From the NCBI RefSeq assembly GCF_018350175.1, contig NC_058368.1, forward strand, positions 22,260,001 to 22,324,000: a DNA stretch of 64,000 nt, written 5' to 3'. The DNA is from Felis catus. Its lineage: Eukaryota. How positions within the stretch are numbered: the first letter of the stretch is position 1; the number at the start of each line of letters is the position of its first letter. Shown here piece after piece: positions 11,891 to 63,495 of the stretch. Below the pieces are notes generated by a model. It saw only the letters and a program-made list of their open reading frames with translations, ran no database searches and was not told the origin of the DNA. Made by a program: the position numbers and the translations under genes.

Positions 11891-12394
11891 TGTGGTAGGC
11901 TGAATAATGGCCTCCCAAAATATCCAGGTCCTAAACCCTGGAACCTATGAATGTTCAGGGACTGTACAGATGTTATTTAGTTAAAACTCTTGAGATAGAA
12001 AGATCATCCTGGATCATCTAGGTGGACTCTAAATGGAATTACAAGTGTCTTTTTTAGAGGGAAAAGGCCATGTGATAATGGCAGCAGGGGTAGAAAAGGC
12101 TATCTATCAGATGTAGCCATGGATTCATGGTAATGACCCAGTAATGAAGAGAGTCTCCAGAAGCTGGTAAAGTCAAGAAAATGGATTCTTCTCTAGAATT
12201 CCTGGAAGAAGCATGGCTATAGTGACATTTTAATCTCAGAGATTTTAATCTCAGAGAGAGCCATTTTTGATTTTAATCTCAGAGAGAGCCGTTTTGGATT
12301 TCTGGCTTCCAGAATCATAAGAGAATAAATATATTTTGTTTTAAACCCTTGGGTTTGTGGTAATTTGTTAAACTAGTCACAGTAAATGAGTACA
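11891..12394 (+). mobile_element. MaLR solo LTR (MLT1D-like) with a small internal tandem duplication at ~12226-12300
   Basis: TG...CA ends (tgtggtaggctgaataatggcc ... gagtaca); 5-bp TSD tttgc/cttgc; aataaa signal. Confidence 0.85.
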
Positions 12395-15837: not shown

Positions 15838-16119
15838 CTGAGACTCTTAATGTTATCCCATGTCCAGTACAATAAGGACTGATAATTATATATGAATCTT
15901 TTCTGCTATATTTACATATAGTGAAGAAAAGCCATTAGGAGTATTACTTAAAGATACAACAAATGCCCATTTACTATATGTAAAGAAGAGGAGCAAGTTA
16001 GCTTAGAGTTCTTTTTGTATCAAAAAAAAAAAAAAAAAACAACAACAACTGACATTTAATATTAGTGGGGGTGGGAGGAGTAAACGTCCAGTTGGAAATA
16101 CTCTAAAGAATATTGTTAC

Positions 16120-16258
16120 CTTCCATTGCAAAGTGAGCGAATTTTTGGTCCGATTGGCTATCCTTGGTGGATTAGGTACATCAGGTTCACAGCTTAAGGT
16201 GGTAAAGCTTTCAGCTTCTGAAGGAGTTCCCTTTATAGAATTATATTCTGCCTGGACT
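16120..16258 (-). CDS. FNDC3A: FNDC3A exon (139 nt) VQAEYNSIKGTPSEAESFTTLSCEPDVPNPPRIANRTKNSLTLQWK
   Basis: caccatag|A GTC CAG ... TGG AAG|gtaac; phase 2->0. Confidence 0.96.
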
Positions 16259-16382
16259 CTATGGTGATAAAATATATAGTTTTAACCAGCAGAATCACAG
16301 TATCCTACTTTCAACAGCCATCAACCTTTAAGTACTTGGAAATTAGTAAGGTGCCCTCTAAATATTCTATCAAGAAAACATG

Positions 16383-20893: not shown

Positions 20894-21934
20894 GGTTGAA
20901 GTATATATACAACGTTGTATTAGTTTCAGGTGTACAATACAGTGAGACTGAACAATTCTATACATTTCTTAGTGCTCACCATGGTAAGTGTATACTTTTC
21001 TTTTTTTTTTAAGATTTTATTTTTAAGTAAACTCTAAACCCATTGTGGGGCTTGAATTCACAACCCCAAGATCAAGAGTCACATGCTCCACTGAACTGAG
21101 CCAGCCAAGCACCCCTGATAAATGTATTCTTAATCCCCTTTATCTTTTTCACCCATCCCCACATTAATTTCCCCTCTGGCAACCACCAGTTTGTTCTATG
21201 TATTTAAGAGTCTATTTTTTGGTCTCTTTTCTTGTTTGTTCATCTGTTTTGCCTCTTAAATTCCACATAGGAGTGAAATCATATGATATTTGTCTTTCTC
21301 TGACTCATTTCACTTAGCATTATACTCTCTAGGTCCATCCATGTTGTTGCAAATGGTGAGATTTCATTCTTTTTTATGGCTGAGTAATATTCCATTGTAT
21401 ATATGTTACCTATATACCACGTCTTTATTCATTCATCTATGAATGGATGCTTAGGATTGCTTCCATACTTAGCTATTGTAAGTAATGCTGTAACATAAGA
21501 GTGCATAGGTCTTTTTGAATTAGTGTTGAATTAGTGTTTTTGTTTTCTTTGGGTAAAAACCCAGTAATCGAATTACTGGATCATATAATAGTTATGTTTT
21601 TCATTTTTTGAAGAACCTCCATATTGTTTTTCATAGTGGCTACACCAATTTGCATTCCCACTAAAGTGTATGAGGGTTCCTTTTTCTCCACATCCTTGCC
21701 AACATTTGTTATATTCTTTTTGATTTTAGCCATTCTGACAGGTGTAAAGTGGTATCTCATACTGGTGTAGTCCCAATAGTTTAATTTTGCTTTTGTTTCC
21801 TTGCCTAAGGAGACATATATAGAAAAATGTTCTATGGCCGATGTCAAACAAATTGTTGCCCATGTTTTCTTCTAGGAGTTTTATGTTTTCAGGTCTCAAA
21901 TTTAGACCTTTAATCCATTTTTAGTTTATTTTCA
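20894..21934 (-). mobile_element. 5'-truncated L1 (carnivore/L1MA-like) with a nested short SINE at ~20996-21115
   Basis: ORF2 C-terminal remnants (MRYHFTPVRMAKIK in ORF 21581..21847) and a carnivore-type 3' UTR; internal deletion near 21770. Confidence 0.9.
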
Positions 21935-24257: not shown

Positions 24258-24806
24258 TTTATCCAAGGGATACAGGAGTACTGATGCATAGGGGCATTTG
24301 TACCCCAATGTTCATAGCAGCACTCTCAACAATAGCCAAATTATGGAAAGAGCCTAAATGTCCATCAACTGATGAATGGATAAAGAAATTGTGGTTTATA
24401 TACACAATGGAATACTACGTGGCAATGAGAAAAAATGAAATATGGCCTTTTGTAGCAACGTGGATGGAACTGGAGAGTGTGATGCTAAGTGAAATAAGCC
24501 ATACAGAGAAAGCCAGATACCATATGGTTTCACTCTTATGTGGATCCTGAGAAACTTAACAGGAACCCATGGGGGAGGGGGAAAAAGAAAAAAAAAAAAA
24601 AAAAAAGAGGTTAGAGTGGGAGAGAGCCAAAGCATAAGAGACTGTTAAAAACTGAGAACAAACTGAGGGTTGATGGGGGGTGGGAGGGAGGAGAGGGTGG
24701 GTGATGGGTATTGAGGAGGGCACCTTTTGGGATGAGCACTGGGTGTTGTATGGAAACCAATTTGACAATAAATTTCATATATTAAAAAATAAATAAATAA
24801 ATAAAA
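24258..24806 (+). mobile_element. Young felid L1 3' end (ORF2 C-terminus, 3' UTR and poly-A), antisense to FNDC3A
   Basis: Uninterrupted ORF 24284..24550 CTPMFIAALSTIAKLWKEPKCPSTDEWIKKLW...; G-rich 3' UTR; aataaa followed by an A-rich tail. Confidence 0.95.
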
Positions 24807-31306: not shown

Positions 31307-31547
31307 CTACATCTCCATATACTTGAGAAGACTGATACTGTGGCATATACTGTGTTGCCATGTCTCCAGCTCCGGTCACTGGGGAGTACATATGGCGTGG
31401 TGGAGGGGGCATCATGGTTGGGACAGGAATGAAACCAGGCAGAGGAGGAGGATGTGGAGAACGGTGTAGAACTGTGTGACCACCAGGATGAAACTCTGGT
31501 GCCTGAGGAACCACAACAACTCTTCGAACACCATTGTCTTCGATAAC
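31307..31547 (-). CDS. FNDC3A: FNDC3A exon (241 nt) VIEDNGVRRVVVVPQAPEFHPGG...SSQVYGDV
   Basis: tttgtag|GTT ATC GAA ... GAT GTA G|gtaaga; phase 0->1; overlaps ORF 31272..31514. Confidence 0.97.
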
Positions 31548-32139
31548 CTACAAATTGAACATTAAACATTTCTTCCATAAGATATAAGCAATTCTTTTGT
31601 AAAAGGTTAGAGAAGGAATTTTTATAGCATTAGAAGTTCATTAGAAGTTCATATTAAATACACTAAGTACACATGAATTAGTAGTGAACAAGATGAGGTA
31701 GTTTTTATTATACAATGCAATATAAATCTTAAAACACTGATGAGATTAGCTAAATAATAATACAAATAATGAACTACAATATCAGGTATTTATTCCTATG
31801 TGTTATGTGCATTTAGTGATGCGTTAACAACAAAAGGAGACTCAAGGGAATTTTTGGGTTAAATAACAACAGGATTAGGAATTAATTTCCTTTTCCATAT
31901 TATGGGCAGGAATAAGCTGTGGAAAGAACACAAACTGTGAAATAGATATGGGGAAAAAAACTGGATCCAGATATCTAAAATCAACCATATATTGCATTTA
32001 GGTACAAAATTCTTATGACCATGACCAGGAGAATTTTAACAGTTGAGGATCTTTTCAAGGGAGACAAACACCTAATATATTATTAACTCCCAGTTAAGCG
32101 AAGTATCTGTGGCTTTCAGTTTTAGAAATTATATATTTT

Positions 32140-32578
32140 CTTAAAGTTTTTATTTTAATTCCAGTTGGTTAACATACAGTGTCAAATTAGATCCTGGTGT
32201 ACAATATAGTGAGTTAACACTTCCATACAACCCTGGATGCTCCTCACAAGTGCACTCCTTATTCTCCATCACCTATTTAACGCCAACTCCCCACACCCCA
32301 CCGCCCCCGCTCTTGTAACCATCTGTGTGTTATCTATAGTTAAGTGTCTATTTCTTGGTTTGCCTCTCTGCTCCTTTTTTTTTTTTTCCATCTGCTCGTT
32401 TGTTTTGTTTCTTAAAATTCCACATATGTGTGAAGTCATCTAGTATTTGTTTTTCTCTGACTTATTCTGCTTGGCATAATAAATACTCTCTAGCTTCATC
32501 TGTGTTGTTGCAAATGGCAAGATTTCATTCATTTTTATGGTTGAGTAATATTCCATTTTATATATACACCAAATCTTT
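32140..32578 (-). mobile_element. 5'-truncated carnivore L1 3' end
   Basis: T-rich tail, then gttaacatacagtgtc...gttgcaaatggcaagatttcattc...taatattccatt; homologous to 20894-21420. Confidence 0.9.
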
Positions 32579-32597
32579 TTTTCCCCTTAGATCTAGT

Positions 32598-32797
32598 ATT
32601 AGGGTTCGGTTTAGTGACAGAATAATGGTTAGAGTTAGGGTTAGGGACAGTGTGAGGGTATGTGCCTAACTCTAACCTCTAATCTTAACCCTGAAGTTAT
32701 CCTTCTGGAGAGGTCTCTGAAGTACTGGATAATAGGCACATATCCTCACACTGTCCCTAACCCTAACCATTATTCTGGCCCTAACCCATACCCTAAT
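32598..32797. repeat. Inverted repeat built from degenerate TTAGGG/CCCTAA hexamers plus unique spacer sequence
   Basis: Arm 32598-32668 is the near reverse complement of arm 32733-32797. Confidence 0.9.
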
Positions 32798-32964
32798 CTT
32801 AGAAATCATACCTTTTTGAAATGGGGTTTAAACTGTAGGAAAGGAGTTTTTAAAATAACAGATTTATTCCCTTTGAACCTCATTGGAGCTACAAGGAAAG
32901 CCTTCCGGATATAGGATTTTATCTCAAAATTAGGAATTCTTCTACCAAAACAGGGCCCCTACCT

Positions 32965-34628
32965 TTTTATTTTTATTTATTTTTTAATTGTTTTTAAACT
33001 TTTATTTAGAGCCTGACGCAGGGTCAAACCCACATACAGATCGTGACCTGAGCCGAAGTCTGATGCTTAACTGACTGAGCTACCCAGGTGCCCCAAGGGC
33101 CCTTACCTTTTTAGACTTACAAGATTACTATCAAGGTATAAGAAATCAACAATAATACTTTTCCCCTTCCTAAAGAAACAGAAAATTATTGAAATGCAAA
33201 GCGCTAACTTAAAGGCAAATTCTGATATTTTCAGGAAGAACAAGTTTTACTATTCTTTTTATTTATTTATTAAAAGCTTTTTTTTAAAGAAAATGTTTAT
33301 TTATTTTTGAGAGAGAGTGTGAGCGAGCACAAGTGGGGGAGAGGCAGAGAGAGGGAGACACAGAATCTGAAGCAGACTCCAGGCTGAGCTGTCAGCACAG
33401 AGCCCGACGCAAGGCTAGAATTTAGAAACTATGAGATCATGACCTGAGCCAAAGTCAGATGCTTAACCGACTGAGCCACCAAGGCACCCCAAGTTTTCTT
33501 AAGAATAGCAAATTTTGGGGGTGCGTGGTTGTCTCAATAGGAAAAGCATGCAACTCTTGACCCTGGGGTTATGAGTTTGAGCCCCATGCTGGGAGTAGAG
33601 ATTACATAAATAAACTTAAAAAAAAAAAAAAAGAATAGCAATTTTTGTATTATAAAAATATACATGCTTGGTAGATATATTAGAAAACACACTTGTTTAG
33701 GTATAGATAAGCTTAAATTACAAATAAATAATTATTGCTTTAGAAAAATTATAGTTACAATTAAAACAGCCTATTAAACTACCCTTACCTGTTGGAGTAG
33801 GAGAGGACTTGTTAACAGGACTAGAAGACCAAATGACTTCGCTGTTTTTTACATACTAACTCTAGAACTATAAATGCCTTGCTTCCAGCAAAATAAATGT
33901 CACATATCCTGATTTTCTCCCTGTTTTAACTCAGTTTTGAATTTAAAGCCTCAGACAAGTGTATGTAATTGGTAGAAATGAAATATCTGGATCCCTAGCT
34001 GGAGAATCTGGAAACCATAGCTTTTCAGCCTCTAACCCACAGGAAGGGACATTAGGAGTCTGGAGTGGATTTTGAATAAGCCAAACCAGTGTCTGTTGCA
34101 ATACACTACTTTCACCATTATCAACTCTCCAACTCACAAAGATTAAATGACTCCCATTGTTGATAGGATTACAGTCCATATTCTCTGACACTGTGTTCAG
34201 TCTTGCTCCAACCTACCTTCCTAGATGTATTTTTCTTCTACACCAAATCCTGAACCCTTAACTCCAGTCAGGCTGGTATAACTAAAAACCTATCTTCATA
34301 CAGACCTATACATTTCTGTATCTTGGACTTTTGTTTGTGCCATCTTTCTTCTACTCTTTGCTTCCCCTTAATCTATAACTACACAAATCCCATCCATCCT
34401 TCCATATCTAGCTCTAACTTTACCTTCTCCATTCATTTTAAAAGTATTTTTTAAAGTTTATTTATTTTTATTTTGAGAGAGAGCTTGAGCAGGGGGAGGG
34501 GCAGAGAGCGAGAGAGAGACAGAATCCCAAGCAGGCTCCGCACTGACAGCAGGGCTCGATCTCACAAACTGGGAGATCGTGACCTGAGCCAAAATCAAGA
34601 GCTGGATGCTTAACTGACCAGGCACCCC
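32965..34628. mobile_element. Four CAN-SINEs: 32965-33094 (-), 33278-33490 (-), 33517-33632 (+), 34447-34628 (-)
   Basis: Heads and tails; TSDs agggccc(c/t)taccttttt and aagaatagcaa. Confidence 0.88.
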
Positions 34629-51815: not shown

Positions 51816-51886
51816 TGTTTTCATTTATCTCCTGTTAACATCACAGGCATTTGTTTTCATTTATCTCCTGTAACATCACAGGCATT
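51816..51886. repeat. Tandem duplication of a 36/35-bp unit
   Basis: tgttttcatttatctcctgt(t)aacatcacaggcatt occurs twice. Confidence 0.95.
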
Positions 51887-63197: not shown

Positions 63198-63495
63198 ATT
63201 TTTTTTTAATTTTTAAAATTTGTTTATTTTTTTAATGTTTGTTTATTTTTGAGAGAAAGCACGAGAACGAGTAGGGGAGGGGTAGCGAAAGAGAGAGAGA
63301 ATCCCAAGCAGGCTCCCCGCCGTCAGCACAGAGCCCAACACAGGCTCAATCCCAGGACCAGTGAGATCATATGACCTGAACCAAAATCAGTCAGATCATA
63401 TGACCTGAACCAAAATTAACTTACTGAGGCATCCAGGTGCCCTTATTTTTTTTCATTTTAGAGAAATAAAGTGCAAGCGGGGGAGGAGGCATTGG

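Follow-up and report, generated by a model that had tools for sequence, protein, structure and literature searches.

The locus analyzed here raises the question of how a palindrome of telomere-like DNA came to lie against the broken end of an L1 element, with one short direct repeat around the two, in an intron of FNDC3A. The first-pass annotation proposed a single chimeric retrotransposition, in which L1 reverse transcriptase switched onto a telomeric or satellite RNA, or such DNA was captured at the junction.

The L1 fragment, its target site and the hairpin

The host gene of the window, the whole 64-kb stretch of cat DNA that was analyzed, is FNDC3A on the minus strand. It was named through two of its later exons, at 16006-16281 and 499-705, which match solved FNDC3A/KIAA0970 domains with E values of 5.9e-18 and 2.9e-34, respectively. 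The next exon downstream of the insertion in the pre-mRNA, for which the ESM Atlas gave no name, lies on the minus strand at 31307-31547 as an open frame between AG and GT. Its acceptor AG (31548) is the nearest to the hairpin, 1.04 kb downstream in the FNDC3A pre-mRNA, which fits the earlier placement of the hairpin about 1 kb upstream of an exon. Read from left to right on the plus strand, the insertion comprises an 18-bp repeat copy, a decayed T tail, about 445 bp of L1, 218 bp of non-L1 DNA, which we call the cargo (32586-32803), and the second 18-bp copy. A short SINE (32952-33113) sits 150 bp to the right of the hairpin, with a target duplication of 17/18 (32952-32969 and 33096-33113); we take the SINEs of the window to be of the carnivore type. 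The window also contains near-perfect two-copy tandem duplications at 51816-51886 (36 bp), 63359-63416 (29 bp), 12241-12301 (28 bp) and 2521-2571 (26 bp).

The L1 part (32140-32585) is a 5'-truncated 3' end on the minus strand, sense to FNDC3A, and aligns to three other L1 fragments in the window (near 21171, 24378-24755 and 7501); presumably it represents a carnivore L1 3' UTR. Its poly(A) tail is a decayed T-rich stretch at about 32140-32160 and its 5' break falls at about 32584-32590. The flanking direct repeat, a probable target-site duplication on the plus strand, consists of a left copy at 32122-32139, which ends in TTTT beside the decayed poly(T), and a right copy at 32799-32816, whose first five bases, TTAGA (32799-32803), are also the end of the right arm of the palindrome. 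The two copies agree at 15/18 positions, the best diagonal in the scan. For a chance estimate, the left copy was kept fixed at the tail and a right copy was sought at random sites: the score was equalled at 14/392 sites in a wide search space and at 13/1479 in a narrow one, and at 3/1479 when an endonuclease-like motif had to accompany it. Such a motif, the nick site TTTTT/GAAA (TC/AAAA on the minus strand), spans 32813-32821 and runs past the right copy; the consensus of the L1 endonuclease is TT/AAAA (PMC13174262). Judged by these frequencies, the direct repeat is probably a real L1 target duplication, of modest strength. The locus thus shows the 3' end, poly(A) tail, 5' truncation, duplication and endonuclease motif of target-primed L1 insertion. 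Three elements of the first-pass annotation come through these comparisons: the truncated minus-strand L1, which it ended at 32578 and whose homology runs slightly further, to about 32584; the imperfect 18-bp repeat bracketing L1 and palindrome; and the endonuclease-like site at the target.

The cargo contains an inverted repeat. Its left arm (32592-32668, plus strand) is a G-rich inverted duplicate of the right arm (32733-32803), from which it differs by eight substitutions in 71 columns (63/71 agree) and by one extra hexamer at 32628-32633; the arms are separated by 64 nt. An inverted repeat differing by few substitutions and exactly one hexamer had already been described, on shorter arms in which we count six substitutions in 65 columns and one 6-nt indel (GTTAGA, 32628-32633); the arms in fact reach further, to 32592 and 32803. 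The stable hairpin expected of it was recovered by folding, at -113.5 kcal/mol on the plus strand (z -11.6; 0/200 shuffles as good) and -111.9 kcal/mol on the pre-mRNA strand (z -11.6; 100 shuffles). The small inner stem seen earlier in the loop is also found, as 6 bp joining 32697-32702 with 32727-32732, though it varies among relatives of the cargo, A at 32732 being replaced by C in 5/7 contigs of the public read set X1 described below.

Short homology is observed at every joint. On the L1 side, CTTAGA at the L1/cargo junction (32586-32591) is identical to 32798-32803, the same six bases thereby flanking the telomere-like DNA on both sides; they may be donor sequence or the first bases of the target duplication. 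At the strand switch, the four nucleotides CCTA (32665-32668) end the inverted arm and begin a direct piece (32665-32803), about 140 nt of C-rich strand that comprises the 64-nt loop and the right arm and was recognized from related contigs and reads. At the right target copy, the homology is the TTAGA already mentioned.

Each arm carries one TTAGGGTTAGGG, at 32635-32646 and 32755-32766, which we take to be a putative minimal shelterin site. A search of Rfam gave nothing at gathering score, the best entry being mir-744 with 20.9 bits where 87 are needed. The insertion is most likely a neutral scar with no function, predicted from its folding to be able to form a hairpin in the intron RNA.

The repeat family behind the cargo

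The cargo is the window's richest 210-bp stretch in near-telomeric hexamers, with 15 of them against a mean of 1.7 and a next best value of 7, and no second copy of it was found within the 64-kb window. Seven degenerate hexamers stand in register in the right arm (32755-32796), matching a CCCTAA array at 34/42 positions, and telomere-like reads map here; over eight units the match is 38/48. Only two perfect telomeric units occur in a row in each arm.

Public reads were matched to 32555-32960 at 80% likeness in 4 of the 24 runs found, two of them as contigs (X1 and X20) and two as raw reads (X21 and X24). The depths are lower bounds, as the filter removes records: about 2.5 reads of the locus itself were expected per raw run and 0 were seen. 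The flanks of the cargo received no depth, and all 56 raw reads were partial matches, none of them at 95% or above; everything matched therefore belongs to other places in the genome. At 80% likeness, the relatives are confined to about 32589-32810, edges that are inferred from bin means. The core at 32704-32768 is represented by seven X1 contigs (summed depth 276, most of the listed ones near 39) and four X20 contigs; at about 0.8-fold sampling, its raw depth is 6 in X21 and 14 in X24. From these values we put the donor family at roughly 7-18 members for 80% likeness, which the read filter makes a lower bound. Two X1 contigs span 32689-32798 and 32698-32802, with 19 differences each. Most loose ends of the relatives, among those listed (18 of 41), consist of spacer or of TAACCC runs in degenerate form, and CTTAGATC and CCTAGATC motifs, similar to the CTTAGA at 32586-32591, occur among them.

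Several observations indicate that the donor family is linear. Records that match the left arm leave it at 32667-32668, and beyond this point their sequence is that of 32704-32733 in reverse complement (X21 and X20 loose ends), depth is near zero over 32669-32694, and among the matches listed (16 of 43) there is no palindromic relative, no piece across both arms and no joint record. We conclude that 32586-32668 is a local inverted duplicate and not part of a MITE. A palindromic multicopy MITE was rejected as the source, with no record across both arms and relatives that run on linearly at 32667; a match to such an element, which the first-pass annotation had named as a sign of independent insertions, did not appear among the matches listed. 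The two arms are sister copies of one donor, since both have A at 32750 and T at 32754, positions at which most of the X1 contig depth (218.8 and 257.2 of 270.1) carries other letters; at 32743, the family letter is kept in the left arm and changed in the right. To judge from the matched records, the repeat family from which 32665-32803 derives as one piece is diverged, TAACCC-rich and low in copy number.

In the left arm, 32625-32666 is the sole part matched by a few X1 contigs whose summed depth is very high (to about 2,700), while raw depth there is at most 5; these contigs may represent a higher-copy relative or telomere variants. Pattern scans for relatives of the cargo returned 0 viral contigs, 0 GTDB genomes and, with one pattern, 0 metagenomes. 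A second pattern hit two metagenome sequences (L001:1920-2226 and L002:1916-2379) with 22/23 bases of the loop and no telomeric hexamer, which we took as chance; in both, the match lies in a spaced repeat unit with copies about 130-180 bp apart.

The cat satellite FA-SAT, a 483-bp monomer of 64% G+C that makes up about 2% of the genome (PMC5714208), had been put forward as a possible source. Like the cargo, it is rich in telomeric motifs, and it has dispersed, diverged copies often next to L1 (PMC5714208). Unlike FA-SAT, the cargo (32586-32803) has 42.7% G+C, with 1 CpG, and its raw depth reaches at most about 20 where 23,000-80,000 would be expected, assuming that the reads are from cat and that the filter keeps the satellite. 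Four of the 13 published FA-SAT primer rows were tried and no primer site was matched: the best agreements were 11/20, 13/20, 12/21 and 11/16, equalled by 67%, 5%, 41% and 7% of window blocks, respectively. On G+C, depth and primer matches no better than 13/20, mainstream FA-SAT was rejected; the cargo may be distantly tied to diverged or ancestral FA-SAT-like units. As for the broader proposal of a telomeric or subtelomeric source, the part that stands is a TAACCC-rich repeat family with members outside this locus. The idea that pure hexamers, of telomere or TERRA, were the sole source is not supported, since the core at 32704-32755 is non-telomeric and has genomic relatives.

The cargo may be called subtelomeric-type on its composition, the related contigs being unplaced; SUBTEL_sa is the RepeatMasker name for a subtelomeric satellite. 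By synteny, the window may lie on cat A1. Table S2 of PMC5714208 places a diverged FA-SAT monomer run (about 78-88%) on A1 of felis_catus_8.0, at 22,195,106-22,215,406 and 22,254,323-22,255,034. If the window is indeed on A1, this diverged array lies near FNDC3A and may be a candidate local donor; no part of it falls inside the 64-kb window, and the accessible part of PMC5935720 gives no gene coordinate that places the locus relative to it. The same table reports weak FA-SAT matches at the tips of two chromosomes, A1 (26.7 kb; 66.2 and 66.5 kb, 314 apart) and B3 (4.3-4.5 kb), with 77-84% over monomer positions 2-108 or 18-153 (PMC5714208). These suggest an older subtelomeric relative of FA-SAT, which could be the donor family.

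One integration or several steps

The simplest account, to which we give an even chance, is a single L1 integration that went wrong, its 5' junction being closed by template switches guided by microhomology. Several elements of this reading are directly supported: the donor family, its non-palindromic members, the sister arms, and a repeat and nick motif beyond chance. The L1 endonuclease would have nicked the target at TTTT/GA, and reverse transcription would have produced about 445 nt of L1 cDNA. From the open 5' junction, synthesis would have jumped by microhomology onto a diverged member of the TAACCC-rich (subtelomeric-type) family and copied about 80 nt of this donor as the G-rich strand; it would then have switched strands at CCTA, 64 nt further along the donor, and run back over about 140 nt to give the C-rich strand. 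Joining to the other target end at TTAGA would have left the 18-bp target duplication around L1 and cargo, and the inner 35 bp of the palindrome may have been re-perfected later by arm-to-arm template switching. As the relatives are linear and non-palindromic, the palindrome would be a local by-product and not a property of the donor. We infer both the single event and the order of its steps, and the template was probably DNA rather than RNA. Against a single event stand the CTTAGA on both sides of the cargo and, as set out below, the low divergence of the inner arm and the clustering of the arm mismatches; in addition, up to 12 bases of the right repeat copy would be donor-like if one read reaches about 32810, a position given by a bin mean.

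The divergence of the different parts was compared. For the L1, we counted private substitutions relative to two other L1 fragments in the window, a measure that depends on subfamily relations, and obtained 15/143 in the core block and 7/43 in a second block; an untrimmed count of 22/168 includes indel-rich junction columns that are possibly not L1, and trimming gives the 15/143. Per-branch values are 3/36 for the target repeat, 8/142 for the whole arms, 7/72 for the outer arm and 1/70 for the inner arm. Compared with the L1 core block by Fisher's test, neither the repeat nor the outer arm differs (p 1.0 each), the whole arm gives p 0.19 and the inner arm p 0.024; the whole arm gives p 0.049 against the second L1 block and p 0.033 against the untrimmed count. 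Seven of the eight arm mismatches cluster in 22 columns next to the L1 (32592-32617; p 0.013), five are transversions, and three oppose T in the left arm to G in the right on the G-rich strand. With p ranging from 0.024 to 1.0 according to the part of the arm, dating leaves one event and two steps unseparated. Two accounts fit these values. The stem may be of the same age as the L1, with later restoration of its inner part by template switching, a process that perfects hairpin stems without selection (PMC5453318). Alternatively, an error-prone formation produced the outer mismatches, which would make the hairpin far younger than the L1.

A history in two steps, the main rival, is possible, if rather doubtful, and accounts for the sequence just as well. 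The truncated L1 would have inserted ahead of the cargo, 32587 (TTAGA...) being the first base of its right target copy; a later break there would have been repaired from the TAACCC-rich family with a fold-back that duplicated CTTAGA, and the old target duplication would bracket L1 and cargo without any common event. The presence of CTTAGA at both 32586-32591 and 32798-32803 allows for such a history with the same end result, the five bases that open the target repeat directly adjoin the L1 5' end, and the nearly undiverged inner arm and the clustering of mismatches also speak for it. There is a precedent in the horse, where telomeric insertions at breaks come with duplicated targets, with head-to-head repeats and with inverted duplications, 38 and 53 bp long (PMC7215372). 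However, a second break would have been needed within a few bases of the L1 5' junction, the bases at 32586-32596 can be explained as donor (one read begins at about 32589, and loose ends carry CTAGATC-type motifs), and the outer arm is as diverged as the L1. We find it distinctly unlikely that the left arm was copied in place, that is, that a linear piece entered first, with or without the L1, and was later folded back by a short-range template switch during replication. Sister arms with an almost identical inner part are what this would produce, and the geometry fits the four-point model, in which hairpins are made in one step and kept perfect without selection (PMC5453318); but the left arm appears to match relatives about 3 bases further than the right arm reaches, one read starting at about 32589, and these bases could not be supplied in place, and 71 bp exceeds the few tens of bases treated as short range (PMC5453318). 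It is highly improbable that a palindromic MITE-like element or a telomerase-added interstitial telomere simply lies beside the L1, with the 18-bp repeat there by chance. The size is MITE-like, the shape is a hairpin with a 6-bp flank repeat, and the chance level of the 18-bp repeat (0.9-3.6%) is not negligible after selection by a reader. Against this, no matched relative, among those listed, is palindromic or has both ends, and the published rule for short interstitial telomeres is at least four TTAGGG units with fewer than one mismatch per unit (PMC2246262), whereas the hexamer runs of the cargo contain 8 mismatches over seven units and 10 over eight. A telomerase-made interstitial telomere was rejected on these counts and on the non-telomeric core with its genomic relatives: degenerate units and core together point to captured repeat DNA and not to a telomerase product.

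Within the single integration that we prefer, an RNA template is an unlikely variant. L1 reverse transcriptase, active in the germ line of an ancestral cat, would have copied a TAACCC-rich (TERRA/ARRET-like) transcript and L1 RNA in one event, writing the head-to-head palindrome by twin priming or by a template switch on the repeat-family transcript; the latter could have been a free TERRA/ARRET-like RNA, or could have started in a repeat array and read through into an L1 embedded there. The target duplication, the nick motif and homologies of five and four nucleotides, TTAGA (32799-32803) and CCTA (32665-32668), follow the twin-priming pattern (PMC11702581, PMC13174262), and satellites of the FA-SAT type give rise to transcripts and most often have L1 as their neighbour (PMC5714208). 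The 71-bp overlap at the inversion is at odds with this route, the reported overlaps being 1-10 bp (10/32 inversions with duplication; PMC11702581). A-to-G change on the L1-sense strand would fit only 1/8 arm mismatches, 5/8 being transversions, and nothing therefore marks an RNA hairpin intermediate; moreover, no record among the matched reads bridges the donor-L1 junction, though the filter may hide one. Were the template RNA after all, the locus would be a fossil of the L1-driven spread of a telomere-like satellite. That L1 disperses FA-SAT has been proposed from counts of flanking sequences (PMC5714208), and the locus would then offer direct evidence for the dispersal of telomere-like satellites by L1 in carnivore genomes, as well as a telomerase-free route to interstitial telomere-like sites.

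Relation to known systems

On the likeliest reading, a single L1 integration, the interest of the locus would lie in a telomere-like cargo of traceable origin, a linear donor turned into a hairpin on arrival. In our literature search, with most subscription journals outside its reach, we did not encounter an L1 insertion described as carrying a telomere-like satellite, and a recent catalogue that lists L1 chimeras has 0 occurrences each of satellite, telomer and TERRA in its main text (PMC13174262). The chimeras described there join LINE-1 to U6, 5S, tRNA, 28S, Alu or mRNA sequences. Like them, the FNDC3A insertion combines non-L1 sequence and L1 in one target duplication with an endonuclease motif; unlike them, it has a cargo without an RNA hallmark.

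Two further kinds of event share some of its features. Interstitial telomeres inserted at breaks (PMC7215372, PMC2246262) likewise show facing hexamers, G-rich then C-rich, with a duplicated flank in ordinary chromosomal DNA, but the FNDC3A units are too degenerate for this class and enclose a 50-bp non-telomeric core from a repeat family. Short-range template-switch mutations (PMC5453318) also turn an inverted nearby copy into a hairpin in one step, the stem being perfected later; the FNDC3A copy is longer and lies at a retrotransposon junction.

The closest parallel is with the complex insertions observed in L1-expressing cells, some with extra templated genomic DNA, some with inversions at the reciprocal end and some with two RNA templates (PMC11702581). 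A truncated L1, a target duplication, a nick motif, inverted templated pieces and microhomology at each joint are common to these and to the FNDC3A insertion. The latter differs in its telomere-like cargo, absent elsewhere in the 64-kb window, and in an overlap well beyond the range quoted above; it is also an old, apparently fixed germ-line copy, whereas the insertions of PMC11702581 come from cell culture. The event is thus a known kind of accident, a complex L1 junction, with an unusual cargo.
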